Part shown: positions 47,920 through 64,000 of the stretch, piece after piece
Layout of the letters: each line of letters begins with the position of its first letter
Position numbering within the stretch: the stretch's first letter is position 1
From: Dehalococcoidia bacterium
Lineage (GTDB): Bacteria; Chloroflexota; Dehalococcoidia; Plut-88900
NCBI GenBank assembly: GCA_965249275.1
Contig: CBDFLQ010000005.1
Coordinates: 160,001-224,000 of the forward strand
Reading direction: 5' to 3'
Length of the DNA: 64,000 nt
Notes under the pieces: model-generated
What the model saw: the letters and a program-made list of their open reading frames with translations, nothing else
What the model was told of the DNA's origin: nothing
The model's database searches: none
Position numbers and translations under genes: made by a program

Positions 47920-48333
47920 ATGAAGCTAAAGTACGCTGTCGTCTATGAACAAACGCCCAACAACTTCTGCGCCTACGCTCCTGACCTGCCCGGTTGCGTC
48001 AGTACGGGCAAGACTTGGGACGAAGTCCGAGAGATGATGCGGGAGGCAATCGGATTCCATTTAGAGGGAATGCTGGAACATGGCGAATCCGTCCCGGAAC
48101 CGCGAATGTCCATTGAAGACGCTAAGGCCTATCACAACGACCCTCTCTCCAAGCAAGAGCAAAAGGCCCTTGCAGCCTACGGCGCTGATGCTCCCAACCT
48201 GTCAACCACTTTCGACATGGCAGAGATTGAGGTAAACCTCGCCCCTACCCCCATGTCATCCCGAGGCCCCGCGAGGGATCTAGGACTTGCCCCTTCACAT
48301 CCCTCTCGACCATCCCCTCCCTACCCCTCCTGA
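47920..48333 (+). CDS. hicB: HicB-like antitoxin (orphan), with C-terminus reading through a REP-like repeat
   Basis: YAVVYE....N..AY.PDLPGCVS.G.T..E....MREAI.FHLEGM...G..VPEP motif. Confidence 0.88.
   Translation: MKLKYAVVYEQTPNNFCAYAPDLPGCVSTGKTWDEVREMMREAIGFHLEGMLEHGESVPEPRMSIEDAKAYHNDPLSKQEQKALAAYGADAPNLSTTFDMAEIEVNLAPTPMSSRGPARDLGLAPSHPSRPSPPYPS
48254..48292 (+). repeat. REP-like repeat family A, forward copy inside the hicB 3' end
   Basis: 39-bp core identical to the copies at 42118 and 44484. Confidence 0.92.
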
Positions 48334-49568
48334 TTACACACATCCAGCGCCGTAGCTGCCATCACCTTGGCGCAGGTGACCATGTCGCTGATGCGGACGT
48401 AGTGGTCCGGTTCATCTTCCCGTGCGTCCCAATCGCCCCCGGGTCCGTAAAGCACGCACGGAATGCCTGCCTTCCACATGTGGGTGGTGTCGTTCCCCGA
48501 GTAGGAGTTCGGGGTCTTGCTCCCGACGTAGGCCAACTCGCCCCCCGTAACCGCCCTGAACCCCCGAGCCACTGCCTTCACGATCTCCTCGTCCGTGGGC
48601 ATGTTCATCGGCTCCATCACCGTGCGAAGAACTCTGTAATCTGCCGGGGGCGGCATCTCGATCTCATAGTCGAACTCGGGGTCCGACGCTTTGACTCCAT
48701 CCAACGCCCGCCTCACCTCTTCCAAAACACCCGCAGAGGTCTGCCCAGGGACCATGCGCCCGTCAACTAGCGCCGTGCAGAAGTCCGGCACGAAGTTCGG
48801 GCCGTTAATAACATGGTTCCTCCCCTGTCCCCCGATAACCGCCCCAACGTGCAGCCGAGGCAAGGATGGCAGAGCCGCAAACGGTGTGTGCGAAAGCTCA
48901 AGCCCATTTATCGCCTCAATGGCCTTGGCCATCTTCTGAATGGCGTTGACCCCGCTCTCTTTCTGGCTTATATGCCGAGACTCGCCCAACACGTGTACCG
49001 CCATCTCCAGCCATCCCGCGTGGATCGTGAGTACGGTGTCCGCATCGTTCGGCTCCGCCACTATCGCCATGTCGGGCCGGTACCCGTGCTCCAGGGCGTA
49101 CTCCGTCCCCACCCCTCCCTGCAGCTCCCCGACAACGCACGCCACCTGTAGGTCACCTTTAAGTGACGCCTTGGCCCGGCGCACCGCCTCAGCCGCCGCC
49201 ACTATCGACGCAACACCGCCCTTCATGTTGTATATCCCCGCCCCATACAGCCGGTCACCTTCCACCGAGGACTTCCACGGGTCACGCTTCCAACCCATTG
49301 AAAGCGGGTCCTGGTCTATGTGCCCGTTCAGCATCAGGGTTTTCCCACCTCCCGTGCCCCGCAGCGTAGCAATGACCTGGTATCGGCCCGGATCGACCTC
49401 CTGAAGGTCGACCTCATATCCCCATCGCCGGAAGTTCGATGCCAGGAACAGCGCTATCTGAGATTCCTCGGTCTTGAAGCTGGGTATGTCGATTAGCTTC
49501 TTCGCAAGCCCGACAACCCAGTCTTCCTTTACCCGATTCGTTACTCTGTCTAAAGTTGTTGCAGCCAT
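48321..49568 (-). CDS. M20/ArgE-like metallohydrolase, paralog 1
   Basis: LMLNGHID, LYGAGIYNMKGG, VVGELQGG and VAEP motifs. Confidence 0.9.
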   Translation of the reverse strand: MAATTLDRVTNRVKEDWVVGLAKKLIDIPSFKTEESQIALFLASNFRRWGYEVDLQEVDPGRYQVIATLRGTGGGKTLMLNGHIDQDPLSMGWKRDPWKSSVEGDRLYGAGIYNMKGGVASIVAAAEAVRRAKASLKGDLQVACVVGELQGGVGTEYALEHGYRPDMAIVAEPNDADTVLTIHAGWLEMAVHVLGESRHISQKESGVNAIQKMAKAIEAINGLELSHTPFAALPSLPRLHVGAVIGGQGRNHVINGPNFVPDFCTALVDGRMVPGQTSAGVLEEVRRALDGVKASDPEFDYEIEMPPPADYRVLRTVMEPMNMPTDEEIVKAVARGFRAVTGGELAYVGSKTPNSYSGNDTTHMWKAGIPCVLYGPGGDWDAREDEPDHYVRISDMVTCAKVMAATALDVCNQEG

Positions 49569-49583
49569 TCTCGACCTCCCCGG

Positions 49584-50828
49584 CTAGGCCGGCAGGTTAC
49601 AGACTTCCAGTGCCGTTAGGGCGTGAGTCTTTGCACACTCGACCATTTCGCTCACGTTGACGAAGGTATCGGCCTCTCCACCGAGCGACCTGTCGCCCCC
49701 CGGCCCGTTCAGGACACACGGAATGCCCGCCTTCCAAAGGTGGCACGTGTCGTTGCCCGCGTAGGACCGAGGCAGTATCGCTCCGACATTCTCGGGTGGC
49801 GCACCCATGTGCCCTTCAATGGCCCGTGACACCGCCCCGACTATGTACTCGTCCTTCGGGATGTCCACCGGGTCCATGGTCACGGCTACTCCCTTGTATT
49901 TCGCAGGCGGTGGTATCTCCAGCTCCCATTTCAGTTCCGGGTCCTCGGCGCTCAGGCCGTTCAGGACCTTCCTCACGTCCTCCTCTACGGTCTCGGCGGT
50001 CTGTCCGGGGACTATGCGCACGTCCCAGATGGAGGTGCAGAAGTCGCTCACGTAGTTGGGGCCCTTCAGGTCGTGGTCCCGGCCCCGCCCCCCGATAATT
50101 GCCCCACAGTTTATCCTCGGCAGCCCCGGCAGTTCGGGGTGCGGCGTATGCCTCAGTTCGACTTTGTCCACCGCATCGATCACCTTCATCATCTTCCCAA
50201 TCGCGTCGACCGCCTCTTCCCTCACCGTGATGTGCTTGGAGTACCCCAGGACGTTGATCGCCATCCCGATAACTCCGGCATGGATAGTCATGATAGTCTT
50301 CGACCCGAAGGGCTCGGCTACAATGGCCATGTCCGCCGTCACCCCGCTTTCGAGAGCGTGGACCGTCCCCACCCCTCCCTGCAGCTCTCCCACCACGCAC
50401 GCCACTACTATGTCTCCCTTAAGCTCCACCTTAGACTTACGAATAGCCTCCGCCGCCGATATCATCGAAGCGACTCCACCCTTCATGTTGAAGGCTCCAC
50501 CCCCGTACAGCCGGTCCCCTTCCCAGCTGGGCGTCCACGGGTTCCGTTTCCAGCCCATCGCCAGCGGGTCGATGTCTATGTGCCCGTTCAACATCAGGCT
50601 CTTCCCCCCACCCGACCCCTTAAGCGTAGCTATGGTCTGATACCGCCCCGGCTCCACTTCCTGTAGATCGACCTCATATCCCCTCCGCCGGAAGTACGTG
50701 GCGAGATACTTGGCTACCTTCTGCTCTTCCGTCTTGAAGCTCGGTATGCGGAGGATCCTGCTGCACAGGTCCACCACCTCCCGATCCTTGATCTTTCCCA
50801 GAACCCTATCCTTCACTGCTGCATCCAT
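49584..50828 (-). CDS. M20/ArgE-like metallohydrolase, paralog 2
   Basis: LMLNGHIDIDP, YGGGAFNMKGG, VVGELQGG and VAEP motifs. Confidence 0.9.
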   Translation of the reverse strand: MDAAVKDRVLGKIKDREVVDLCSRILRIPSFKTEEQKVAKYLATYFRRRGYEVDLQEVEPGRYQTIATLKGSGGGKSLMLNGHIDIDPLAMGWKRNPWTPSWEGDRLYGGGAFNMKGGVASMISAAEAIRKSKVELKGDIVVACVVGELQGGVGTVHALESGVTADMAIVAEPFGSKTIMTIHAGVIGMAINVLGYSKHITVREEAVDAIGKMMKVIDAVDKVELRHTPHPELPGLPRINCGAIIGGRGRDHDLKGPNYVSDFCTSIWDVRIVPGQTAETVEEDVRKVLNGLSAEDPELKWELEIPPPAKYKGVAVTMDPVDIPKDEYIVGAVSRAIEGHMGAPPENVGAILPRSYAGNDTCHLWKAGIPCVLNGPGGDRSLGGEADTFVNVSEMVECAKTHALTALEVCNLPA

Positions 50829-51575: not shown

Positions 51576-52826
51576 CTACTTCTCCTGGTTGCACCAGTCC
51601 ATCGCCGCCAGGGCATACGTCTTCGCCAGCTGCACCATGCTCGGCACTATGACGTAGGAGTCGGGCTCACCCTTCTGGTCCCGGCCGTTCTCGGCGCCCA
51701 TCAGGCACACTGGAATACCCGCCTCCCAAATGTGGCAGCTGTCGTTGCCCGCATAGGATTGGGTCAGTATCGCCCCTATCTTGTCCGGCGCCCGACCCGA
51801 AACCTTACGGTAGGCCTTCTCCAGGTTCTGCACTATCACGTTGTCTTTGGGCACGTCCATCGGGTTCATGAACACCGTCATCACCTTGTACTCCGGCGGC
51901 ACCGGCGTCACGATTTCGTACTCGAAGGTCGGGTCCTCTTCCTTGATCTTGCTCAGTGCCCGGTCAAGGTCTGCCTTGACCGTCACGTGCGACTGCCCAG
52001 GCACGATCCTCGCATCGACTATCACCGTGCAGTAGTCACAGGTGAAGTTCGGCCCTTTCAGGTCGTGGTTCCTCCCCCTCCCCCCGATTATCGTCCCAGC
52101 GATAATCCGTGGCAGATCGGGCAGGTCGGGCCTGTGCTCGTAGGTGAATTCTACGTTCTTGATTGCCGGTATGGCCTTTGTCATCATCTCCAGGGCGTCG
52201 ACGGCCAGATGAGAGCGGCTCACGTGCTGCGACTGCCCGACGGTGCTGATAGCCAGCTCCACGACTCCTGCGTGAGTCGTCATTATGTTGTCTCCGTCGC
52301 CCGTGGGCTCCGCGACATACGCTCCGTCAGTTCTCAGTCCTTGGTTCAAGGCGTAGACCGTCCCCACCCCTCCCTGTAGCTCCCCGACAACGCACGCCAC
52401 GACAAGGTCGCCCTTCATCGGGGCCTTGGCCTTCCGAATAGCCTCGGCAGCGGTGATGATCGCCGTCACGCCGCCCTTCATGTTGTTGATCCCAGCACCG
52501 TACAGCCGGTCCCCTTCCCAACTGGGAGTGAACGGCTCCCGCACCCAGCCCATCGCCAGCGGGTCGATGTCTATGTGCCCGTTCAGCATCAGGCTCTTGC
52601 CCCCACCCGACCCCTTCAGCGTCGCTATCGTCTGATACCGACCCGGCTCCACTTCCTGCAAATCTACCTCATACCCTCTGCGACGGAAGAACCCGGCCAG
52701 GAACCTTGCAACTTTCTGCTCTTCCGTCTTGAAGCTAGGCATGGAGATCAGGTCGCTGGCCAGCTTGACTGTCTGCTCGGTCTTGATCTGACGAAGGACG
52801 CGTTCCTCGACCGCTTGGTCAACCAT
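51576..52826 (-). CDS. M20/ArgE-like metallohydrolase, paralog 3
   Basis: Same motifs as paralogs 1 and 2. RBS GGGAGGT before ATG 52826. Confidence 0.9.
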   Translation of the reverse strand: MVDQAVEERVLRQIKTEQTVKLASDLISMPSFKTEEQKVARFLAGFFRRRGYEVDLQEVEPGRYQTIATLKGSGGGKSLMLNGHIDIDPLAMGWVREPFTPSWEGDRLYGAGINNMKGGVTAIITAAEAIRKAKAPMKGDLVVACVVGELQGGVGTVYALNQGLRTDGAYVAEPTGDGDNIMTTHAGVVELAISTVGQSQHVSRSHLAVDALEMMTKAIPAIKNVEFTYEHRPDLPDLPRIIAGTIIGGRGRNHDLKGPNFTCDYCTVIVDARIVPGQSHVTVKADLDRALSKIKEEDPTFEYEIVTPVPPEYKVMTVFMNPMDVPKDNVIVQNLEKAYRKVSGRAPDKIGAILTQSYAGNDSCHIWEAGIPVCLMGAENGRDQKGEPDSYVIVPSMVQLAKTYALAAMDWCNQEK

Positions 52827-52961
52827 TCTTACCTCCCGAGACACATGGGTTCTTTAGGAAGAAGGACTGTTTGCCCTTCTCAAGGACGAGGCGAGTATAT
52901 TATCAGCCCCGACCACAAACAAGCCGAAACGCCACTCCACCCCCGTAGGTGCACCCCCTAG

Positions 52962-54617
52962 GAGCCTGTCTCACAAGTGGGGTGGGGTGTGGCAAGAGTG
53001 AAGGGCTAGATGGGGTGTCATTTGAGCAATGATCGGTCACGACGACTCATGCCGGGTGGCCGATGATTGAGTTGCGCACCAGCGATGGGATGAGATTGCG
53101 GCCCCATATGCGGGTTGTCCGGCCGTGCCATACCCGCCACAGGGTGCGCAGATTGAAGGCCGAGGCCAACAGGCCCCACTCGGCGGCCACGTTGTTGAGG
53201 CCCCGCAGCAGGAACCTACGCGCCGCCTGTTGCTCTTTGATGATCCCGAACACCGGCTCTACCAGCCCCTTCCTGCGACGGTACAACTCTCTGGCTTCAT
53301 CGCTGCCCATCCAGGACCGATGACGACGCAAGGCTGTGTCGTGGGGCCCTATCTCAAGCCCTCGCCCATGTCGGCCGTCCCTCGTACACACCCCGAAGAC
53401 CGGGCACCCTCGGCAGATGGCCCCCGAGGCCCGGTAGAGCCTCATCGGCATCCCACGGGTGCGCTTGATTCGGGTGAAGCGTAGTCGTTGTCCTTGCGGA
53501 CAGATGTAGCTGTCGGTATCCTCATCGTAGGCGAATCGGTCCTTGTGATAGGGGCGGCCCAGTGCCCGACGCTGTGCCTCAGGCATCACAACTTTCTGCT
53601 CTCTGCGCCCACACTGCTGCAGATTGCTCCCTGAGTGATAGCCCGCATCGGCCAGCGTCGTCTCAGACCTGAGGCCGGTGGTCTCCTCCGCCCTCTGAAG
53701 CATTGGAACGAGTTGGGAATGGTCGTCGGGATCATCGGCTACCTCTACTGCAGTGATCAACATGCCCTTCCCGCCTGTGTCGGTCTTCGTCGGCGATACC
53801 ATCGCCTGTGCGTTGTAGCAGGGCGCTATCCCCCGGCGAGTCCTCATCAGACGTGCGTCTTTATCCGTGAGGTTTATCTGTTTGATCTCACTGCGCTCCG
53901 AGAGTTCGTCCATAGCTCGGCGCACCTTCTCTCTCAGCGCCGTCTTCTCGGTCAACTCATCAGGCAGATGGACGGGTGCGGCATCCTCCCCCGTCTCGTT
54001 CTCAGCCTCCAGTTCCTTCAGCGACTGCTCCACACGCCTCAGCAGACGCTCCAATCCTTCTCCATCCAGGCTCCTGTCTCCCGTCGCATTCGCACCCACC
54101 TTCGTGCCGTCCACTGCCTGCAGCGTCAGGTCGATAAGGTCCATCCCGAGCGCCGTTTGCACTGTGCGCTTCAGCAGTTTACGCATCGACTGGCGATTGC
54201 TCTTGTAAAACCTCCACAGCGTGTTGTGATCTGGACGCTGCCATCCCGTCAACCATAGATACGGTATCTGGTCACGGCAGGCCCCCTCCAGCTTGCGGCT
54301 CGACCTTACCCCCGTCATGAATCCGTACAGCCACACCCCCAACATTGCCCTGGGATGGTACGCCGGCGCTCCCGTCCAGCTTCCGTCAATGTCTACTCCC
54401 ATCTCTGCCCAGTCCTCCCGTCCCAGTGCATCGACGAACTCCGCCACGAACCGCACAGGATGATCTTCCGGCACCATCTCATCCAGGGTCGGTGGCAGCA
54501 TCCACACCTGCTCTCGTCCCATCGGTCTCAGTGGCATCTCCATAACCTCCACTCAGAGCTTCTCCCCTCCTAGTTTACCCTCATGCATAAACCTCCACTC
54601 CCTTTTGAGACAGGCTC
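52962..54617 (-). mobile_element. IS1182-family insertion sequence, 1656 bp
   Basis: Terminal IRs GAGCCTGTCTCACAAG / CTTTTGAGACAGGCTC (15 of 16 match). 5-bp direct repeat CCTAG at 52957-52961 and 54618-54622. Confidence 0.92.
53047..54552 (-). CDS. IS1182 family transposase
   Basis: G.PAYHP..ML, SSRKLE, PDHNT, VDGTK..ANA, TD.DA, YNAQ, LADAGY and VEPVFG.IK motifs. Confidence 0.95.
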   Translation of the reverse strand: MEVMEMPLRPMGREQVWMLPPTLDEMVPEDHPVRFVAEFVDALGREDWAEMGVDIDGSWTGAPAYHPRAMLGVWLYGFMTGVRSSRKLEGACRDQIPYLWLTGWQRPDHNTLWRFYKSNRQSMRKLLKRTVQTALGMDLIDLTLQAVDGTKVGANATGDRSLDGEGLERLLRRVEQSLKELEAENETGEDAAPVHLPDELTEKTALREKVRRAMDELSERSEIKQINLTDKDARLMRTRRGIAPCYNAQAMVSPTKTDTGGKGMLITAVEVADDPDDHSQLVPMLQRAEETTGLRSETTLADAGYHSGSNLQQCGRREQKVVMPEAQRRALGRPYHKDRFAYDEDTDSYICPQGQRLRFTRIKRTRGMPMRLYRASGAICRGCPVFGVCTRDGRHGRGLEIGPHDTALRRHRSWMGSDEARELYRRRKGLVEPVFGIIKEQQAARRFLLRGLNNVAAEWGLLASAFNLRTLWRVWHGRTTRIWGRNLIPSLVRNSIIGHPA

Positions 54618-55007: not shown

Positions 55008-55967
55008 CTATTTCGTGCCGGGAACCAGCGTGAGCAGGAACTGCAGCACCAGGTTGGCAGCGAGAAGCGAGGTTATTTCAGAAATATCGTAGGCGGGAGC
55101 CACCTCCACGATATCAAACCCAACCGCCCCGATACCCCTCAGGCTCTTGACCAGGGCCATCGCTTCCCGGCTGGTGAGCCCCGCCACCTCCGGGGTCCCG
55201 GTTCCCGGGGCGAAACCAGGGTCCACGCTGTCGATGTCGTAGGAGATGTGCACCGGACGACCCTTTGTGGCCGACCTTATCTTCTCGATAGTGGCATCGA
55301 CACCCGTGTGCCAGAACTCCTCGCCCGTGATCACGGTAATGCCCGCGGCCTTTACCTCCTCGACTATCCCCATTGAGGGCCGTCCCCGTATCCCCACCTG
55401 CACTGACGTCGCCGGGTCCATGATCCCCTCATCCGAGGCGATGCGGAACATGGAGCCGTGGTGTATAGGCATATCCTTGGGCGGCTCCCAGAAGTCGGGG
55501 TGTGCATCGAAATGGACGAGGGATATCTTCCCGTGCTTCTTGTACAGCGCCCTCAGAATAGGAAGAGAAACCGTGTGGTCTCCCCCGAGGCACACCGGGA
55601 AGACGTCCTGGGAGATGATATCCGTGACGACAACCTCTATGCGCCTGACCGCCTCTTCAATGTACCCATAGGTGAGTTCGATATCTCCATAATCTACGAT
55701 GCGGAGGCTCTTGAAGGGCTCGGTCAGCTCCGCCGCCTCCAGCCCGTGCTGCCCGACGTGCATGGACGCAGTACGTATACCCCTAGGCCCGAACCTCGCC
55801 CCCGAGCGAATGATGGTCCCCAAATCCAGCGGAAGCCCGACTATCGCCACGTCGGCTTTGGACAGGTCCCGGCTCCCGGGAATCTGCATAAAGGTGCTTG
55901 GGCTCCCGTATCGGGGCCCGTTTTGCCACGCTTCAGGCATCAATCGATTTTCTTCAGTGTTACCCAT
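55008..55967 (-). CDS. Agmatinase-like ureohydrolase
   Basis: GARFGP..IR, GGDH, HFDAHPD and SYDIDSVDP..APGTGTPE motifs. Confidence 0.92.
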   Translation of the reverse strand: MGNTEENRLMPEAWQNGPRYGSPSTFMQIPGSRDLSKADVAIVGLPLDLGTIIRSGARFGPRGIRTASMHVGQHGLEAAELTEPFKSLRIVDYGDIELTYGYIEEAVRRIEVVVTDIISQDVFPVCLGGDHTVSLPILRALYKKHGKISLVHFDAHPDFWEPPKDMPIHHGSMFRIASDEGIMDPATSVQVGIRGRPSMGIVEEVKAAGITVITGEEFWHTGVDATIEKIRSATKGRPVHISYDIDSVDPGFAPGTGTPEVAGLTSREAMALVKSLRGIGAVGFDIVEVAPAYDISEITSLLAANLVLQFLLTLVPGTK

Positions 55968-56085: not shown

Positions 56086-57216
56086 ATGGCAACTTCTCTT
56101 ATTGGAAGCTACGTTTCTGCGGATGGACACGTCGTGGAACCGAAGGATCTGTTCTCTTCCCGCATGGACCCGAAGCTCGTGGAAAAGGCCCCTCACATCG
56201 AGTCCCGGGACTCCGGCGACTTCTATGTCATGGAAGGCTTCGGAGAATTCGCCATCGGCCTTTCCGGCGAGGGCAGTGCAGCCACAGACAAAGCCGAGGG
56301 CAAGGAAATCCACATGGCTGGCCTCCGCTATGATGACACCCGACCCGGCGCCTGGGATCCCGCCGCACGGCTCAAAGATCAGGACCTGGACGGCATCCGC
56401 GCCGAGGTCATGTACCCCGGTGTCTTTGGCCTCTGGTGCTATAACGCCTCCGACGCCGACCTACACATCGAAATCGTCCGCGTCTATAACGACTGGATCG
56501 CCGAGTTCAGCGCCTCCGCCCCCGACCGCCTGGTTGGCGTCGGCATCCTGCCTATGAGAGGTTCGACCGAAAGCAAAGTCGCCGAAGTGGAAAGGGTCGC
56601 CAAGCTTGGGCTCAAGTCAGTGATGCTTCCCCTGGAAGTGGAGGGCGGCTACGTCAACATGGAGGGTGGCGACCGGCTTTGGGCTGCCCTTCAGGACGTC
56701 GGGCTGCCCCTCGGATTTCACGTCGGCTCCAGCACCAAGTCGGTCAGCGCTGACAAGTACCGGAGCCTGGGAGTAGGCGTAGCCGTAATCGAGCAGAAGA
56801 TCTGCGCCGTGGCCCGTGGCCTCACCGACCTCATCCTCTCCGGCGTCCCCCAGTCCTTCCCCGGCCTCCGGTTCGTCATGGCCGAGGGCGGCATCGGCTG
56901 GATACCTTCAGTCCTACGTCTCAACGACCACTGGTGGGAAGACCACCGGCACTGGATGGAGCCCAAGCTGGAAGAGGCGCCGAGCAGCTACTTCTTCCGC
57001 CAGTTCTGGGCCACTTTCGAAGACGACCGCGCCGGCCTCCTCACCCGGGAACTCCTCAACGTCGACCACCTGATGTGGGGGTCCGACTACCCCCACCCCG
57101 AGGGTGTCTTCCCCTTCTCAAGACAGCAGATCGCCAAGGACTTCCACGACATCCCCGAACATGAAACGGTAAAGATCGTCGGCGACAACGCAGCGGCGCT
57201 GTACGGCCTGAATTAG
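56086..57216 (+). CDS. Amidohydrolase_2 family protein
   Basis: SADGHVVEP, RL.DQD.DG...EV.YP, YNDW, FH, EGGIGW.P and MWGSDYPH motifs. Confidence 0.9.
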   Translation: MATSLIGSYVSADGHVVEPKDLFSSRMDPKLVEKAPHIESRDSGDFYVMEGFGEFAIGLSGEGSAATDKAEGKEIHMAGLRYDDTRPGAWDPAARLKDQDLDGIRAEVMYPGVFGLWCYNASDADLHIEIVRVYNDWIAEFSASAPDRLVGVGILPMRGSTESKVAEVERVAKLGLKSVMLPLEVEGGYVNMEGGDRLWAALQDVGLPLGFHVGSSTKSVSADKYRSLGVGVAVIEQKICAVARGLTDLILSGVPQSFPGLRFVMAEGGIGWIPSVLRLNDHWWEDHRHWMEPKLEEAPSSYFFRQFWATFEDDRAGLLTRELLNVDHLMWGSDYPHPEGVFPFSRQQIAKDFHDIPEHETVKIVGDNAAALYGLN

Positions 57217-57308: not shown

Positions 57309-57412
57309 GCACATTTGTGCCTCTGGTATACAGGCTGCAAGTACGCCAAGCTGAAAGTTTTCCTCCGGCGGAGCGTGAGCCCATCCCCCCACTTGTATGC
57401 TACCCTCAACGC

Positions 57413-59569
57413 ATGAGAACTGCTTCCTTGGCCCTCCTTTTCCTCATCGCCGCCGCCCTCCTCTCAGCCTGCTCCACCGACCCGACGCCCACACTCATAC
57501 TCACACGCACAGCCACTTCCCCGTCCCCCACCCCTGTGCTGCCGGACACGCCAACACCCGTGCGTGCCGTTCCCCACATCCCAATCCCGACCAGGGAACC
57601 CACGCCGACGCCTAATGTACAGTCCACCTTGCCAACCCTCACACCCACGCCGAGCACCAGCGGAGAGGCGCGCGCTCTCCTTGCGTCGGGTGCAGCGGCC
57701 CTCAGCGAAGCCAAAGGTGCCGCCTTTCAAATAGACGCCACACTTCAAGCCGGGACCGAAAACTTTTCCATTAATTATTCGGGGGACTTTGCTGTAATAC
57801 AGTACGTTTCCACAATTGCCACCGTGACAACTCCTGAGGGAAACGTATTCAAGAGTCGCATAATCTCAGGATTCCACGAGTTCTATTTTTTCAATGAGAC
57901 GACTCGAGAGTGGGAATCTTCAGACTATAGGGACGCGCCGTTTGTCACCAACATTGGCGCCCTTTTCGGATGGCGATGGGATATGCTTACCGGCTTGTCC
58001 CTCGGAGACCGAAAGACAATTGAGGGCGTTGAGTCTCAGGCGGTGTCGGGCCGACTGGATTCGCTACAGTTTAGTGGCCATCGTGGAGACTTTGAAGCTA
58101 CTTATTGGTTCGGCGTGGAAGACAACCATTTGAGGAAGGTCTCTCTATCGGGCATCATCCAACTCGACGAAGAATATTCAATTGTTGGTGTCGACGCTCA
58201 GCCCGGGGCCCAATTGTCCTTGGAATTGACCGCCCGAGTGTTCGATCACGGCAAAAGAGTTCCCGTGCTTACACCGGACCCCTACTTTCCTGTCTATTCC
58301 GGTCACAAGGGGATACTGCTGGACGACGGCCGGGTCCTTATGGCGGGAGGATTTACCGGCTTCGTAGCCAACAACAACCTCATCATTCCCTCTCCTGTCG
58401 GTCCCGTCCAGATATACAACCCATCCACTGAAGAATGGGCTTTATTAGAGCCTATCGAAGGCCCAGGACTGCTCTATTCCATAGTCGAGCTGGTCGATAA
58501 GAAAATTCTCATGGTCGGAATGCGCAGTGACGAAGAAGGCGAAGTTGTCCCTATGGCCTCTTTGTTCGATGCCGCCTCGGACTCTTGGACCGCCGCCCCG
58601 CGGCCCACTGCCCTGAGAGCCCAACCTAACTTACTGCTGCTTCAGGACGGACGCGTCCTGATGACCGGAGGATGGGCCGTCACCGATAACGATGCCATGT
58701 TCTTCGCCGATCCCGAAAACTTGAACTCATCCGAGATTTTTGAACCCTCCACCGGACTATGGACGCAAGCGGCGCCCACTCACAAGGTGATGGAAGGACA
58801 GAGGTTATCCTTATTGGAAGACGGCCGCGTCCTGGCGATCGGGACGGCAGGGGATGCATATGCCCCGACATCTCATGCAGAAGTATATGATCCCGCAACG
58901 GACGAATGGAGCGTCTTGGAAAGCTTGGACCCCCACTATGTGCCCACCAATGTGGTCAGACTCGCCGATGGAAGGCTGCTGGTGACGGGCGATTACACCG
59001 CAACGGATAATGCGAGCATCGTACATCGCGCTGCTGGAGTAGTCACTCTCCAGCTTCCCGACGGTACCCTCCTAACCTTTGAGTATGACGACACCGGGAT
59101 ACAATCTGTCCAGCTTCCCGACGGCACCCGAATATCCAATGCGGACTTCGGGGCCCGGTTCTTTGGGGCTAAGTTGTATGATCCCTCCATCGACCTTTGG
59201 GCCCCCGCGGGAATGACGGCCCCTGCTGGACTGATGATCCACCCACGAGAGGCAGCCACTTTGACCCTACTATCCGACGGACGAATACTAGCCGCTGGAG
59301 GGGTGAAAGTGGTTCTACCGTGGAGATTCTTCCGCACTCAAGACCCTTCTAGCGAAGACCCAACATTGATCTCCTTCACCGAAATCTTCGATCCGGTTAC
59401 CGGTCTGTGGTCATTGGGGCCTGAGCTCTCCGAACCGCGAGTGGACCACTCTGCAACCGCGCTGCCCGATGGACGCGTGTTGATTGCCGGCGGCATCGGC
59501 TTAACTCGGACAGAGAACCCGGAGATTTATCCGCTGGCTGCGTCCGAAGTTATAGACCCTAACCCTTAA
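57413..59569 (+). CDS. Lipoprotein with Pro/Thr linker, LolA/LppX-like region and kelch-repeat beta-propeller
   Basis: Lipobox LSAC. Repeated L.DGRVL..GG...E.YDP.T..W units. The LppX-like call is tentative. Confidence 0.8.
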   Translation: MRTASLALLFLIAAALLSACSTDPTPTLILTRTATSPSPTPVLPDTPTPVRAVPHIPIPTREPTPTPNVQSTLPTLTPTPSTSGEARALLASGAAALSEAKGAAFQIDATLQAGTENFSINYSGDFAVIQYVSTIATVTTPEGNVFKSRIISGFHEFYFFNETTREWESSDYRDAPFVTNIGALFGWRWDMLTGLSLGDRKTIEGVESQAVSGRLDSLQFSGHRGDFEATYWFGVEDNHLRKVSLSGIIQLDEEYSIVGVDAQPGAQLSLELTARVFDHGKRVPVLTPDPYFPVYSGHKGILLDDGRVLMAGGFTGFVANNNLIIPSPVGPVQIYNPSTEEWALLEPIEGPGLLYSIVELVDKKILMVGMRSDEEGEVVPMASLFDAASDSWTAAPRPTALRAQPNLLLLQDGRVLMTGGWAVTDNDAMFFADPENLNSSEIFEPSTGLWTQAAPTHKVMEGQRLSLLEDGRVLAIGTAGDAYAPTSHAEVYDPATDEWSVLESLDPHYVPTNVVRLADGRLLVTGDYTATDNASIVHRAAGVVTLQLPDGTLLTFEYDDTGIQSVQLPDGTRISNADFGARFFGAKLYDPSIDLWAPAGMTAPAGLMIHPREAATLTLLSDGRILAAGGVKVVLPWRFFRTQDPSSEDPTLISFTEIFDPVTGLWSLGPELSEPRVDHSATALPDGRVLIAGGIGLTRTENPEIYPLAASEVIDPNP

Positions 59570-59604: not shown

Positions 59605-60438
59605 CTAAGGCCGCCAAGCCTCGGGAATCGGGCCGCTGGGCGGGTATCCACCCTGGTCGTCGTGGGTCTCCTCTCCAACCAGCGGAGGATTGAACACGCT
59701 CATCAGGTAGAAATCGGTGTTCGCCTGTATCTGGTGCCGGTCCTTGGGCCCGACTACGTATACCGTCCCCGGGGCAAGGTCCCACTCCTCCCCTGTCGTC
59801 TGGTCCTTCACAGAACCTTCGCCCTCCAGGATGTAGTTAGCCTCCACGTGGTTCTGGTACCAGAGGACAGTGCTCTTGCCCGCAGGGGCGCGGGGCGTAG
59901 ATATTGTGAAGCCGCACCCGTCTTCCTGGGTGAGGTATCGATAGGCGTTCGCGCGGCCGTGGCCTATTACGATTACCGGGATGTCTTCCAGTCTTTTCAC
60001 GTACATAGTTCGGCCCGCATCACCCTGCCAGGCAGGGGGGATATCGCCGGTTGGGGGGAAGGCGCCGTCCGCGTCGTGTCTCTCATTACCCATCACGGCG
60101 GGGCTGAAAATACTGACCAAGTGGACATCAGTCTTGGCCGTTAGACGATGTCTATCCTTAGGCCCGACCACGTACAGTCCTCCGTCCTCCAGGTCCCAAC
60201 TATTGCCGTTGCTCAGGTCTGTCACCTCGATGACCCCTTTGATGATCAGATTCCCCTCCACGTGGTTCTTGTAGTGAAGGTCGATGGAGAATCCCGCCGA
60301 GAAACGGACGTCGGCAAGGGAGAAGCCGCAACCGTCGGCCTTAGTCAGGAGACGCCTGGCATGCAACACCTTGTCGCCGTCGCGTCGCACCATCTCTTTG
60401 TCGGTCCCGGCCAGATCATCCAGCCTTCTTGCGAACAT
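59605..60438 (-). CDS. Tandem two-domain ectoine synthase-like cupin, copy A (277 aa)
   Basis: Two repeats of D..GFS/T...Y.NHVE...G..Y......DRH...F.P...G.E.HD..G.(Y/F)P. GGAGG RBS. Confidence 0.88.
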   Translation of the reverse strand: MFARRLDDLAGTDKEMVRRDGDKVLHARRLLTKADGCGFSLADVRFSAGFSIDLHYKNHVEGNLIIKGVIEVTDLSNGNSWDLEDGGLYVVGPKDRHRLTAKTDVHLVSIFSPAVMGNERHDADGAFPPTGDIPPAWQGDAGRTMYVKRLEDIPVIVIGHGRANAYRYLTQEDGCGFTISTPRAPAGKSTVLWYQNHVEANYILEGEGSVKDQTTGEEWDLAPGTVYVVGPKDRHQIQANTDFYLMSVFNPPLVGEETHDDQGGYPPSGPIPEAWRP

Positions 60439-60543
60439 AATTGCACCTCCAAATGATGTGGCCGCTCATATGTCGACCCCCCAGCGGAGGATCTTGGGCA
60501 GTACGAGCGGCCACCTGGTCCGCGGAATTTTCTGCCTATCGCG

Positions 60544-61377
60544 CTACGGCCGCCACCCCTCGGGGATGGGGCCGGTGGGTGGGTAACCTCCCTGGTCGTC
60601 GTGGGTCTCGCCACCGTATATTGGCGGGTTGAAGACACTCATCAGGTAGAACCCGGTGCTGGACTTCAACTGGTGCCGGTCTTTAGGCCCGACCACGTAC
60701 AGCGTGCCCGGGTACAGGTCCCACTTCTCGCCAGTTGTCTTGTCTTCGACGGAACCCTCGCCTTCGAATATGTAGTTGGCCTCGACGTGGTTCTGGTACC
60801 AGAGGACGATGCCATCGCCCGCAGGGGCGCGGGGCGTGGATATAGTGAACCCGCACTCGTCATCATGGGTGAGGTAGCGGTATGCCTTGGTGCGCCCGTG
60901 GCTTATGCCGACCACGCGGGTCTCCGAGAGCCTTCTTACGAACATGGTCCGGCCGGATTCTCCCTGCCAGGCGGAGGGAATCTCGCCGGTAGGCGGGTAG
61001 GACCCGTCGGCGTCATGCCTCTCGTTGCCCATTGTAGGGGGGCAAAACACGCTGACTATGTGCGCATCTGACTTGGCCGTACCCCGGTGCCGGTCCTTCG
61101 GGCCGACAACGTAAAGGTCCCCGGGGCCCAGGACCCAGCTGTCGCCGCTGGTCAAGTCAGTCAACTCCATTTCGCCGGTAACGATGAGGTTTCCCTCCAC
61201 GTGATTCTTGTAATGCAGGTCTGTGGACATGCCCGCAGAGATGCGGACGTCGGAAAAGGAGAAGCCACAGCCGTCAGCCTTGGTGAGCAGGCGCCTGCCC
61301 TGAAGTTTCTTGTCGCCGTCGACCCGCAGCATCTCCTTGTCCGTTCCGGCCAGGTCTTCCACTCTTCTAACGAACAT
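60544..61377 (-). CDS. Tandem two-domain ectoine synthase-like cupin, copy B (277 aa)
   Basis: Same architecture. True start is ATG 61377 after GGAGGTG. Confidence 0.88.
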   Translation of the reverse strand: MFVRRVEDLAGTDKEMLRVDGDKKLQGRRLLTKADGCGFSFSDVRISAGMSTDLHYKNHVEGNLIVTGEMELTDLTSGDSWVLGPGDLYVVGPKDRHRGTAKSDAHIVSVFCPPTMGNERHDADGSYPPTGEIPSAWQGESGRTMFVRRLSETRVVGISHGRTKAYRYLTHDDECGFTISTPRAPAGDGIVLWYQNHVEANYIFEGEGSVEDKTTGEKWDLYPGTLYVVGPKDRHQLKSSTGFYLMSVFNPPIYGGETHDDQGGYPPTGPIPEGWRP

Positions 61378-61399
61378 AACTACACCTCCGGGTTTGGTC

Positions 61400-62233
61400 C
61401 TACGGCCTCCACGCCTCTGGGATGGGACCGTTGGGCGGGTAATTGCCCTCTTCGTCGTGAGTTTCGCCCCCGACAAGGGGCGGGTTGAAGACGCTGAGCA
61501 AGTACGTATCGGTGAACTTCACGGTCTGGTGTCGGTCCTTGGGCCCGACGAAGTACATGGTGCCGGGGGCCAGGTCCCACTTCTCGCCGGTGGTCAGGTC
61601 TTCCACCGTCCCTTCGCCTTCCAGGATGTAGTTCGCCTCCACATGGTTCTTGTACCAGAGGACGATACCCTTGCCCGCAGGGGAGCGGGGTGTCGACATG
61701 GTGAAACCGCAACCGTCCTCCTGGGTGAGGTAGCGGTAGGCCGTGGACTTGCCGTGGCTGATACCGACTACCCTGGTGTCCTCCAGGCGCTTCACGAACA
61801 TAGTCCGCCCATTCTCTCCCTGCCATTCGGGTGGGATTTCGCCGGTGGGCGGGTAGGAGCCGTCCGCGTCGTGCCGCTCGGTGCCGAGGGTCGCGGGGTT
61901 GAAAACGCTGACGATGTGGATGTCGCTCTTGGCGGTGATCCGGTGCCGGTCCTTGGGCCCGACCACATACAAACCTCCGCCGCTCACGTCCCAACTGTTG
62001 CCGTTGTTGAGGTCTTCCACCTTCAAGTCGCCACTGACCACCAGGTTCCCCTCGACGTGGTTCTTGTACCAGAGGTCGATTGACCATCCCTCCGATAGCC
62101 GAACGTCCGACATTGAGAAGCCGCAAGCGTCGGCCTTGGTGACCAGGCGCCTGGACTGCAATCTCTTGTTGCCGTCGACGCGCACCATCTCCTTGTCCGT
62201 GCCGGCGAGCTCCTCCAACGTTCTTACGAACAT
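61400..62233 (-). CDS. Tandem two-domain ectoine synthase-like cupin, copy C (277 aa)
   Basis: Same architecture. GGAGGTG RBS. Confidence 0.88.
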   Translation of the reverse strand: MFVRTLEELAGTDKEMVRVDGNKRLQSRRLVTKADACGFSMSDVRLSEGWSIDLWYKNHVEGNLVVSGDLKVEDLNNGNSWDVSGGGLYVVGPKDRHRITAKSDIHIVSVFNPATLGTERHDADGSYPPTGEIPPEWQGENGRTMFVKRLEDTRVVGISHGKSTAYRYLTQEDGCGFTMSTPRSPAGKGIVLWYKNHVEANYILEGEGTVEDLTTGEKWDLAPGTMYFVGPKDRHQTVKFTDTYLLSVFNPPLVGGETHDEEGNYPPNGPIPEAWRP

Positions 62234-62324
62234 AACTTCACCTCCAGATCCTTTTCATATATACGGGTCTCGGGGGACAGTCTAACTTAAACCGAGAAAG
62301 CGGACACTCACCATTGCCGGCTCT

Positions 62325-63158
62325 CTACGGCCTCCAGGCCTCAGGGATGGGGCCGGTGGGGGGGTAGCCGCCCTGGTCATCGTGGGTCTCATTGCCGACG
62401 AGGGGCGGGTTGAATACGCTCACCAGCGCGAAGGCCGTGTTGAAGGACATCAAGTGCCTATCCTTCGGGCCAACGAAGTACATCGATCCGGGAGCCAGGG
62501 CCCACTTTTCCCCCGTGTTCAGGTCATCGACGGAACCCTGGCCCTCCAGAACGTAGTTGGCCTCGACGTGGTTCTGGTACCACAACTCCTTCCCGTGGCC
62601 CTCCGAGGAACGGGGGTTAGAGATGGTGAAGCCGCAGCCGTCGGCCTGGGTGATGTAGCGGAAGGCTTGGGCACCCGTGCCCCGGACGCCGACGGCCTGG
62701 GCATCGGACTGTCTCTTCACGATCATGCTGCGGCCCGACTCACCAGCCCAGGCAGGTGGAACTTCACCGGTTGGGGGATAAGCGCCGTCTTCGTCAGGGG
62801 TCTCATCGCCTTTGAGCGCTGGGTTGAAAACCGTGACGGCGTGCAATTCGGTCTTGGTCGAGACGTGATGCTTGTCCTTCGGCCCGACCACGTACAAGTC
62901 CCACGCCCCGACCTCCCAGCTCTTGCCGGTGGCGTACTCCGTAACCGTGGCACTGCCGGAGACTATGAGGCTTGCCTCCACATGGTTCTTGTAGTGACAG
63001 TCGATCTCCCAGCCAGCGGAGAGGGTGACGTCGGCGAGGGAAAAGCCGGCGCCGTCATCCCTGGTTACTAATCGGACGGCCTTAAGCCACAGGTCTCCAT
63101 CCTGCCATTTGACTTCCTTGTCGGTGCCTGCGAGATGGTCAAGGGTTCTTACAAACAT
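62325..63158 (-). CDS. Tandem two-domain ectoine synthase-like cupin, copy D (277 aa)
   Basis: Same architecture. GGAGG RBS. Confidence 0.88.
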   Translation of the reverse strand: MFVRTLDHLAGTDKEVKWQDGDLWLKAVRLVTRDDGAGFSLADVTLSAGWEIDCHYKNHVEASLIVSGSATVTEYATGKSWEVGAWDLYVVGPKDKHHVSTKTELHAVTVFNPALKGDETPDEDGAYPPTGEVPPAWAGESGRSMIVKRQSDAQAVGVRGTGAQAFRYITQADGCGFTISNPRSSEGHGKELWYQNHVEANYVLEGQGSVDDLNTGEKWALAPGSMYFVGPKDRHLMSFNTAFALVSVFNPPLVGNETHDDQGGYPPTGPIPEAWRP

Positions 63159-63221
63159 GTCGGGTGTCCTCCGGCAGATATTTCGTATAAGGGGATAAAG
63201 ACTAGTCCGGCCTCAACTCTC

Positions 63222-64000
63222 TCATGCGTACCTAGGTATCCACGCCTCGGGGATGGGGCCGGTGGGCGGGTAGCCGCCCTGGTCATCGTGGGTCTCATTG
63301 CCGACGAGGGGCGGGTTGAATACGCTTAACAGGTAGAAGCCGGTGGTGGTGTTAACCTGGTGCCTGTCCCTGGGGCCCACAAAGTACATGGACCCGGGGA
63401 ACAGGTCCCATTTCTCGCCAGTGGTCAGGTCTTCGGCAGTCCCCTCGCCCTCAATTACATAGTTAGCTTCCACGTGGTTCTTGTAATGGAGCACGATGCC
63501 GTCTCCCGCAGGAGAGCGGGGGGTGGAAATGGTGAAGCCGCATTCATCTGCCTGGGTGAGGTAGCGATAGGCCTTGGCAGCGCCATGGCTAACGCTGACT
63601 TCACGGGTGTCCGCAAGTCTCTTGAGGAACATCGTCCCTCCCGAATCACCGGCCCATGCGGGTGGGACCTCGCCCGTCGGTGGGTATGCGCCGTCCTCAT
63701 CGGGTTTTTCGTTGCCGATAAGCGCGGGGTTAAATACGGTGACGGCGCGCATCTCGGTTTTAGTTGACACGTGGTGCTTGTCCTTCGGCCCGACCACATA
63801 CAAGTCCCCCGGGCCCACGTCCCAGCTTTTGCCGGTGGCATATTCCGTTAGCGTCGCGTTGCCGGAAATGATGAAGCTGGCTTCGATGTGGTGCTTGTAG
63901 TGGCAGTCTATCTCCCATCCTGCAGAAAGCCGGACGTCGGCGAGGGAGAAGCCGACAAGGTCGCTCTTGGTCACAAGCCGCGCGGCTCTGAGCCACAGGT
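63222..64000 (-). CDS. Tandem two-domain ectoine synthase-like cupin, copy E (5' truncated by window)
   Basis: The frame is open to the window edge (LWLRAARLVTK aligns with LWLKAVRLVTR in copy D). Confidence 0.88.
   Translation of the reverse strand, partial: LWLRAARLVTKSDLVGFSLADVRLSAGWEIDCHYKHHIEASFIISGNATLTEYATGKSWDVGPGDLYVVGPKDKHHVSTKTEMRAVTVFNPALIGNEKPDEDGAYPPTGEVPPAWAGDSGGTMFLKRLADTREVSVSHGAAKAYRYLTQADECGFTISTPRSPAGDGIVLHYKNHVEANYVIEGEGTAEDLTTGEKWDLFPGSMYFVGPRDRHQVNTTTGFYLLSVFNPPLVGNETHDDQGGYPPTGPIPEAWIPRYA

Follow-up and report, generated by a model that had tools for sequence, protein, structure and literature searches.

Tandem two-domain EctC-like cupins without Trp21, Asn38 and Thr40 of ectoine synthase in a Dehalococcoidia genome

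The window analyzed here (64,000 nucleotides, G000:C5:160001-224000, G000 being this Dehalococcoidia genome of 2.9 Mb, 87% complete) ends in a tandem array of five genes, copies A to E, each encoding a protein of two domains that resemble the ectoine synthase EctC. The array is a real, undescribed variant of the EctC family held in a stable set of paralogs—not a new kind of system. All ten domains keep the metal-site residues of EctC, and none has the pocket residues Trp21, Asn38 or Thr40; the enzymes are very probably not used for de novo ectoine synthesis, and the change of pocket, not the fusion of domains, is the main novelty. An earlier note on this DNA had proposed an undescribed system; the array is instead an enzyme subfamily of paralogs, without the make-up of a new multi-part system.

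The array and its genes

The genes and spacer features are listed from the first gene of the array to the last.

63222-64064 (63222-64000 in the window; genome G000:C5:223222-224064), minus strand: copy E, first array gene, 280 amino acids (aa), domain 1 of the D/E type
63168-63172, minus strand: GGAGG ribosome-binding site of copy D
62325-63158, minus strand: copy D, 277-aa double EctC-like cupin, domain 1 of the D/E type
62241-62245, minus strand: GGAGG ribosome-binding site of copy C
61400-62233, minus strand: copy C, 277-aa double EctC-like cupin, modelled as a bicupin
61385-61389, minus strand: GGAGG ribosome-binding site of copy B, within the 22-nucleotide (nt) C-to-B spacer
60544-61377, minus strand: copy B, 277-aa double EctC-like cupin
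60446-60450, minus strand: GGAGG ribosome-binding site of copy A
60439-60543, minus strand: B-to-A spacer, 105 nt, with a long predicted hairpin
59605-60438, minus strand: copy A, last array gene, 277-aa double EctC-like cupin, ortholog group A

The earlier note had counted at least five co-oriented paralogs, four of them complete at 277 aa with their own GGAGG, in an array running off the window edge. This description holds for copies A to D, and the count is now exactly five minus-strand genes: the PF06339 profile has exactly 10 matches in the whole genome, all within these genes, so that the array ends with copy E, whose start lies 64 nt past the edge. Copy E also has a GGAGG, and the motif sits 7-9 nt ahead of the ATG in 5/5 copies; the 310-aa TTG start given for copy B by the open reading frame (ORF) finder lies upstream of the ATG that bears the ribosome-binding site. 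From E to A, the spacers measure 63, 91, 22 and 105 nt. The GGAGG of B falls within the 22-nt spacer, which suggests that C and B are co-transcribed; the hairpin of the B-to-A spacer is predicted at -42.1 kcal/mol (without a shuffle control), and a promoter scan around copy E returned 0 sites, with 2.5 expected by chance.

PF06339 aligns to each protein in two stretches, at 209-222 bits per protein and 104-116 bits per domain (cut-off 27), and the profile search that the earlier note had suggested for each half thus finds all ten. Its reading of two EctC-like domains per copy stands; its PP/SxW linker does not, as that segment is mostly the C-terminal tail of the domain and recurs at the end of domain 2. 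Protein identity between copies is 59-75% and DNA identity 65-75%, and the two domains of copy C are 46% identical to each other. Given this divergence, and the same array in 8/8 other genomes of the genus, the array is no assembly artefact, an explanation that the earlier note had already held unlikely. Domain 1, said to vary more than domain 2, is indeed less conserved in 9/10 pairs (54-81% across copies, vs. 63-77% for domain 2); the exception is the D-E pair, with 81% for domain 1 and 68% for domain 2, and domain 2 of copy D is the most diverged among the five copies.

Active-site residues

Residues are numbered as in Paenibacillus lautus EctC (from locus L063), with functional residues taken from PMC6344544. 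Glu57, Tyr84, His92, Arg25, Tyr52, His55 and Phe106 are kept in 10/10 halves, in agreement with the earlier remark that both halves retain the Glu, Tyr and His positions, and the lid residues Glu114 and Asp117 are present in all ten. The pocket, already suspected to differ from that of EctC, does so at three key positions: 0/10 halves have any of Trp21, Asn38 and Thr40, the residues that hold the ectoine precursor in place. At positions 21, 38 and 40, domain 1 has Leu, Ser/Ala and Val, and domain 2 has Ala/Ser/Thr, Ser and Pro, plus Ala23 in all five copies; the Cys of EctC at position 104 is replaced by Ser or Thr. Domain 1 of copies D and E is distinguished by Ala38, Thr104 and Pro for His116, a residue retained in all other halves. 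The loss of this His, noted earlier as that of the E.HD motif, recurs in 18/18 D/E orthologs of the genus. No half has Trp at 19, 21 or 23; the Trp20 of the D and E domain 1 should, from strand alternation, face away from the pocket. The motifs given earlier for this region, GFSxxDVR in domain 1 and GFTxSTPR in domain 2, fail for copy D, which reads GFSLADVT and GFTISNPR.

Among 56 single-domain EctCs from named genomes, mostly encoded beside ectA/ectB, Trp21 occurs in 55/56, Thr40 in 56/56 and His/Asn38 in 51/56. Mutants of characterized enzymes give some measure of what these positions contribute: W21A leaves 9.7% activity in P. lautus EctC (PMC6344544), and in S. alaskensis EctC the reported values are 26% for W21A, 12% for T40A, 21% for S23A, 44% for H117A and 84% for C105S (PMC4795551). 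Because C105S keeps 84%, a Cys-to-Ser change is taken as harmless, and because H117A keeps 44%, the first site of D and E may survive its His-to-Pro change. With Trp21, Thr40 and Asn38 all gone at once, ectoine formation should be crippled.

Family assignment is affected as well. Against the NF009806 cut-off of 128 bits, the ten single halves score 104.5-121.4 and three single-domain controls 175-198; the whole proteins pass only as the sum of two sub-threshold domains, and this summed score accounts for the public "ectoine synthase" labels. In the ESM Atlas, every cluster returned bears the name ectoine synthase or a similar one.

Search for an ectoine pathway

Profile and tblastn searches of the genome found no ectA and no true ectB, which bears out the earlier note on this point. 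With TIGR02406, ectA was found neither in G000 nor in its family, and the positive control G046 was negative with the same profile. A custom EctA profile, built from 14 sequences, found nothing in 12/12 family genomes (80-94% complete; several single-contig); among controls it recovered ectA at E<=3e-48 in 4/6, the misses being an orphan-ectC metagenome-assembled genome (MAG), G049, and the draft G046, which has no ectA next to ectB. In five other genomes with fused genes, matches to this profile are weak (E>=2e-4) or absent; tblastn with 14 EctA queries gave 0 matches in G000, and ectA occurs in 0/80 metagenomic fused-gene loci. The best EctB match in G000 has 28% identity and 196 bits, vs. 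a cut-off of 552. EctD, EutE and EhuB were also sought in G000, with none above cut-off (EutE without a match, EhuB at 37 bits vs. 191).

Two observations on other ect loci arose alongside. The P. lautus NBRC 15380 draft (L063) has ectB-ectC without an adjacent ectA, unlike strain NRS-1281 (L062), through a deletion or an assembly gap. Several Methanomicrobia/Methanosarcinales MAGs (L043, L045, L047, L048, L050) have an ORF of 605-621 aa directly upstream of ectC that looks, by eye, like an EctA-EctB fusion.

Predicted fold

An AlphaFold2 model of copy C, built on a 74-row alignment, has two cupin barrels (predicted local distance difference test score 96.2, predicted template modelling score 0.93), in keeping with the fused two-domain protein proposed earlier. 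Bicupins head its structural matches, both with VIA-align (Z 19-23, 200-240 residues aligned at 10-18% identity) and with Foldseek. Domain 1 superposes on P. lautus EctC 5ONO with a root-mean-square deviation of 1.7 A over 120 residues at 32% identity, and a sequence search of solved structures returned EctC only (4/4 matches). In the EctC dimer, the N-terminal strand of one monomer pairs with a strand of the other (PMC6344544). Both halves of the modelled chain open with a predicted N-terminal strand (residues 2-5 and 146-148), and it is therefore likely, on this model, that one chain mimics the EctC dimer.

Distribution and evolution of the paralogs

Among 401 genomes of the class, full-length matches are confined to this family (12 genomes), and 0/29 genomes of other families pass the cut-off. 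The other genomes of the genus all carry PF06339 domain matches (8/8, with 7-14 each), intact copies number 3-7 per genome in the genus, and three sister genera have one fused gene each. Nine other genomes of the class have a single-domain ectC beside an ectB-like gene, the ectB recognized by eye; two further Dehalococcoidia MAGs, L031 and L035, have a fused gene.

In a tree of 53 full-length proteins (without one longer G006 copy, a broken G007 copy and the G044 gene), copies cluster by array position across species, as groups E, D, C, B and A together with three groups missing from G000. Group A is duplicated in G001, G002 and G005, and in G006-G008 the paralog set is divided between two loci. 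By simple Nei-Gojobori counts, members of an ortholog group share 86-93% identity, with ratios of nonsynonymous to synonymous divergence (dN/dS) of 0.055-0.14; group C is the most conserved (93% mean identity, dN/dS 0.055), and dS between the G000 paralogs is about 1-1.6. The copies thus appear to be old paralogs, maintained separately, and the expanded and diversified set described earlier takes the form of stable, position-specific ortholog groups under purifying selection. Pocket-facing differences between paralogs lie mainly at positions 23, 38, 59, 104 and 116 of domain 1 and at position 21 of domain 2. They are modest, and distinct substrates per paralog seem likely from them; that the paralogs have diverged in function is, in our judgment, probable. 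Gene loss is visible too, the third copy of the G007 C-B-H locus (L024:9757-10620) being broken into two ORFs and G003 having three intact copies and a fragment. The array appears to be under birth-and-death turnover.

The wider family

Fused homologs are widespread: 482 proteins of 152-485 aa match at E<=0.001. In a metagenomic survey that kept 80 loci from 284, at least two copies occur in 7/80 (an eighth case is one broken gene), and 0/177 halves have Trp21 or Thr40. A Rhodospirillaceae MAG has a six-gene fused array (L034:5073-11314), and two other MAGs have partial arrays. These arrays, of up to six genes in this MAG and related contigs (L034, L032, L033, L167, L156), look independent of the one described here. 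A GcvT-like gene lies inside those of L032-L034, with divergent AstE/AspA deacylase genes nearby, and one copy type of the Rhodospirillaceae-type arrays has lost Glu57 and His92 from domain 1. Three-domain forms also exist (P0069, P0082), and the protein of Bradyrhizobium arachidis, WP_258769026.1, has two near-identical halves.

The earlier note had treated fusion as the hallmark of the family, a view that single-domain relatives do not support. Of 98 short homologs (125-143 aa, Met-starting, from the best 120 of 144 matches), 92 lack both Trp21 and Thr40, and fusion as the defining feature is thereby rejected; a few of the short matches, seen at the protein level, are pieces of fused genes. 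A tree of 85 domains placed the 48 fused halves in one group (89/90), away from the class's own ectBC-linked EctCs; that clean split between fused and single forms held only while the single-domain relatives without Trp21 and Thr40 were out of the tree. Orphan-type single-domain proteins are the group within which the fused halves nest (92/93 support), and in a quick tree (136 columns, Paenibacillus root) forms of 128-132 aa fall below the fused group and forms of 137-138 aa inside it. The simplest reading of these trees is that the pocket changed first and duplication came later. An origin from the class's own ectBC-linked EctC is unsupported, as four such proteins group with bona fide EctCs.

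The literature searched holds no account of a fused or Trp21-less EctC, although the supplements listing 582 EctC-type proteins (PMC5924519/PMC6344544) lay outside that search and could contain one. The clade without Trp21 and Thr40 seems to fall outside the survey in PMC6344544, whose 145 orphans come from finished genomes and all keep Trp21. No fused form was seen on plasmids among the best 20 of 121 records, nor on viral contigs among the best 80 of 183 loci; in both sets, identities and match lengths fit single domains. The viral contigs have 183 stretches with single-domain EctC-like proteins at 29-42% identity to the query (L228-L307). EctC is fused to other partners as well (P0241, P0256, P0268, P0281, P0295, P0315, P0215), which by eye comprise an EctD-like dioxygenase and formyltransferase-like, EctA-like acetyltransferase, ATP-grasp-like and glyoxalase-like domains; the fusion with the EctA-like acetyltransferase has N-terminal extensions.

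Gene neighborhoods and RNA contigs

The surroundings of the array contain the following genes.

57317-59569, plus strand: kelch-repeat gene, downstream insert, GC content at third codon positions 0.61
56086-57216, plus strand: Amidohydro_2 gene, syntenic downstream of the array in the genus
55008-55967, minus strand: arginase/agmatinase-family ureohydrolase, syntenic in the genus
53047-54552, minus strand: DDE transposase (PF13751, DUF772), upstream of the M20 trio
48321-49568, 49584-50828 and 51576-52844, minus strand: three tandem M20 ArgE/DapE-like deacylases, syntenic in the genus
47920-48333, plus strand: HicB-like antitoxin gene, downstream of the M20 trio
G000:C5:224194-225366, minus strand: low-GC orphan ORF, upstream insert, GC 0.44

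Inspection of the next window, as advised in the earlier note, places the low-GC insert, an M24 hydrolase, restriction-modification genes and an FAD amine oxidase upstream of copy E; downstream of the array come the kelch-repeat insert, the amidohydrolase, the ureohydrolase and the three M20 deacylases. Of the genus loci that contain E, 8/9 have an M24 hydrolase ahead of it (L028 is the one without such a call); the ureohydrolase and M20 genes lie beyond the array or beyond its second half. Each end of the array is a hot spot for insertions: other upstream inserts occur in L021, L022, L028 and L111, another kelch gene lies downstream in L112, and in L022 an ORF that by eye resembles a transposase sits between copies.

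The best NCBI families for the M24 neighbor are ectoine hydrolases, at scores far below cut-off. This EutD-like neighbor was rejected as a sign of ectoine catabolism, given these scores and its place among about 20 such paralogs; the amidohydrolase was likewise rejected as an informative neighbor, the genome having 102 Amidohydro_2 matches. About 20 M24 proteins of the EutD/creatinase-like kind are encoded at full length in G000; none reaches the EutD cut-off, and some lie in tandem (for instance at C5:493422-497283). Catabolic enzymes commonly occur in expanded, multi-copy sets in this genome, and the large amidohydrolase/M24 expansion may be undescribed for Dehalococcoidia.

In other lineages, 74 selected neighboring proteins were scanned. 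Among the neighbors there are several subfamilies of FAD amine oxidases, GcvT-like demethylases, GbcA-like Rieske oxygenases, MttB, EutD-like M24 proteins (in L221 at 414 bits vs. 613), AstE deacylases and DHDPS-like lyases. An FAD oxidase is adjacent in 8/64 metagenomic loci with a called neighbor. Taken together, gene context leans to amine catabolism without pointing to any one substrate.

Contigs from 4 of 12 listed RNA runs, representing three studies, are at least 88% alike over parts of the array, and one spans B-C-D. Two of the four runs are labelled sponge metagenome, with array-like contigs of 150-360 nt. The kelch gene has no RNA contig over it; it is a variable insert, hence no valid silent control. 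The contigs are consistent with expression of the array in close relatives, though contigs as such cannot show transcription.

Possible function

In EctC, Fe(II) polarizes the acetamide carbonyl, the alpha-amine loses its proton to the proposed Thr40/Asn38 relay, and Trp21 drives ring closure (PMC6344544). The array genes would each encode a bicupin whose ancestor resembled an orphan EctC, with both halves of the EctC homodimer supplied by a single chain and hence two Glu/Tyr/His metal sites, each under an EctC C-terminal lid. The retained half of the site—the metal, Tyr52, Glu57, Phe106 and the carboxylate-binding Arg25—would activate an amide or amidine carbon; the half that is lost, with smaller or apolar residues in its place, would be the one in charge of holding the alpha-amine and removing its proton so that the ring can close (the Thr40/Asn38 relay and the Trp21 piston). 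Because the carbon-activating half is kept and the amine-activating half is gone, the reverse, hydrolytic direction appears the most likely: a metal-bound water might attack the C=N or C-N bond of a substrate bulkier than ectoine, namely a cyclic amidine, an imine or a related acid with an amide group. The products would feed amine oxidases, M24/M20 hydrolases and ureohydrolases in the catabolism of small nitrogen-rich molecules, and the paralogs would widen the range of substrates, mainly via domain 1. A minor hydrolytic activity on ectoine and its ring-size analogues has been reported for EctC itself (PMC4795551, PMC6344544). We regard it as plausible, if not quite probable, that the proteins are metal-activated hydrolases of a C=N or C-N bond, with cyclic amidines or imines, though not ectoine, as substrates.

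Several observations weigh against this proposal. The equilibrium of true EctC lies on the ring-closed side (PMC6344544), and single EctC mutants retain 10-26% activity (PMC6344544, PMC4795551), which makes some cyclase activity conceivable. The M24 neighbor scores 119 bits vs. the TIGR02993 cut-off of 613, only 19th of 28 matches in a genome whose best reaches 225; the other flanking families are abundant there too, given the Amidohydro_2 count above and about 18 DAO-like places. The single copies of the sister genera do not lie beside M24 or DAO genes, and unrelated genes neighbor the metagenomic copies too (an NAD-dependent epimerase in 7 loci, an AMP-binding enzyme in 8). When cupins are clustered at 90, 80 and 70% identity, adjacency to an FAD oxidase shrinks to 6/47, 3/20 and 1/11 groups; from the last figure, it was largely rejected as independent evidence. 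As neither EutE, EhuB nor EctD passes cut-off, no ectoine pathway is recognizable in either direction. Cyclic amidines as substrates, which the earlier note also proposed, are a tentative assignment, drawn as it is from the retained metal site and a weak neighborhood signal. The fuller proposal is that an undescribed EctC branch without Trp21 and Thr40, of one to three domains and mostly from uncultured bacteria, acts as a ring-opening metal hydrolase for cyclic amidines or imines, and that one Dehalococcoidia genus has expanded it to 5-7 specialized two-site enzymes; as a whole, we would call this possible and no better than tentative.

Alternatively, the proteins might be catabolic enzymes with a different cupin chemistry: metal- and Tyr-dependent lyases, isomerases or tautomerases whose substrates are onium osmolytes or imines released by amine oxidases. 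DddK, a dimethylsulfoniopropionate lyase, and KdgF come closest to EctC in structure among characterized proteins and form the same dimer (PMC6344544), both appear in the structural search with the copy C model (Z 11.7 and 11.6), the GcvT-like, Rieske and MttB demethylation genes are among the neighbors, and an apolar Val or Pro at position 40 fits a substrate without a free amine there. Yet the halves are far closer to EctC, as the 5ONO identity shows against 12% for DddK, EctC's unusual Glu/Tyr/His site and lid are kept, and EctC alone was found among solved structures, so that we consider this chemistry rather unlikely.

Retention of the metal, Tyr52, Glu57, Arg25 and Phe106 would also fit biosynthetic cyclodehydratases closing other N-acyl diamino acids or amides, such as N-acetyl-ornithine, N-acetyl-lysine, glutamine or substrates with larger acyl groups. 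Replacement of Trp by Leu, Ala, Ser or Thr and of Asn by Ser or Ala would enlarge the pocket and admit bigger substrates, and EctC has a side reaction that converts glutamine to 5-amino-3,4-dihydro-2H-pyrrole-2-carboxylate (PMC4795551). We nevertheless judge this option unlikely, and a little more so than the last, since the Thr40/Asn38 relay, the proposed activator of the amine (PMC6344544), is gone from every half, and no acetyltransferase or other biosynthetic gene was seen next to the array in the genus loci, the flanks being hydrolases and oxidases.

Orphan ectoine synthases working on scavenged N-acetyl-diaminobutyrate, amplified for dosage, are an improbable explanation. The whole proteins do exceed the PF06339 and NF009806 cut-offs, a solitary Pseudomonas syringae ectC complemented an ectC mutant (PMC5924519), and single pocket mutants keep some activity (PMC4795551). 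But each half is under the NF009806 cut-off, the published orphans keep the Trp21 that the array halves lack (145/145, PMC6344544), and the ortholog groups are old, diverged and separately kept, unlike a dosage amplification; no EhuB was found above cut-off, other ectoine importers not having been searched for. Non-catalytic metal- or ligand-binding proteins for storage or sensing are the least credible, a very slim prospect even though many bicupins are non-enzymatic, seed storage globulins are among the structural matches and distant members have lost metal ligands in one half (L031, L032-L034, P0169, P0178, P0181), because the ten sites keep their ligands and lid Glu114/Asp117 under purifying selection and a Pfam scan found no DNA-binding or membrane domain.

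EctC serves as a marker gene for ectoine production, and carriers of array-type genes would be miscalled as producers. The clade is a sharply defined and testable subgroup of orphans, the array offers a natural panel of ten active-site variants, and B. arachidis WP_258769026.1 represents it in a named species amenable to genetics. If hydrolysis is the reaction, this would be a new reaction class for cyclic nitrogen turnover, with possible biocatalysts for ectoine analogues; if rings are opened in this way, it would add a new catabolic route and the first concrete function for any EctC-like orphan, with 5-7 enzymes mining varied nitrogen-rich molecules.

Comparison with known systems

The nearest described enzyme is EctC (EC 4.2.1.108; PF06339, NF009806; structures 5ONM/5ONN/5ONO and 5BXX). 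The array proteins share its cupin fold, metal site, Arg25, Tyr52, His55, Phe106 and lid Glu114/Asp117; they differ in having two domains per chain, no ectA/ectB and 3-7 intact paralogs per genome in the genus, and their halves lack Trp21, Asn38 and Thr40, have Ser or Thr for Cys104 and score below the NCBI cut-off. Orphan EctC-type proteins resemble them in the absence of ectAB, and it is among these that the fused halves nest. Several orphan copies per genome have been recorded in 31 genomes (PMC5924519), and the function of orphan EctC is an acknowledged open question (PMC5924519, PMC6344544). The published orphans are said to retain Trp21, in some cases two residues away, as well as most of the other pocket residues (PMC6344544), whereas this clade has neither Trp21 nor Thr40, comprises mono-, bi- and tricupins and forms tandem arrays.

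Other bicupin enzymes—quercetin 2,3-dioxygenase, oxalate decarboxylase, ureidoglycine aminohydrolase, BacB and pirins—also have two barrels per chain. With 10-18% identity, and an EctC-type Glu/Tyr/His site in place of the canonical His-rich cupin motif (PMC6344544), the array bicupins would represent an independent duplication of an EctC-like domain, sharing architecture only. Finally, the catabolic paralog expansions of marine Dehalococcoidia, SAR202 (PMC10444878), provide a class-level comparison: the large catabolic paralog sets of G000, a genome of the same class, follow a similar pattern. Those expansions consist of enolase-superfamily enzymes, flavin monooxygenases, dehydrogenases and sulfatases, the words "cupin" and "ectoine" being absent from the main text of that paper; the array described here is built from a variant of EctC.

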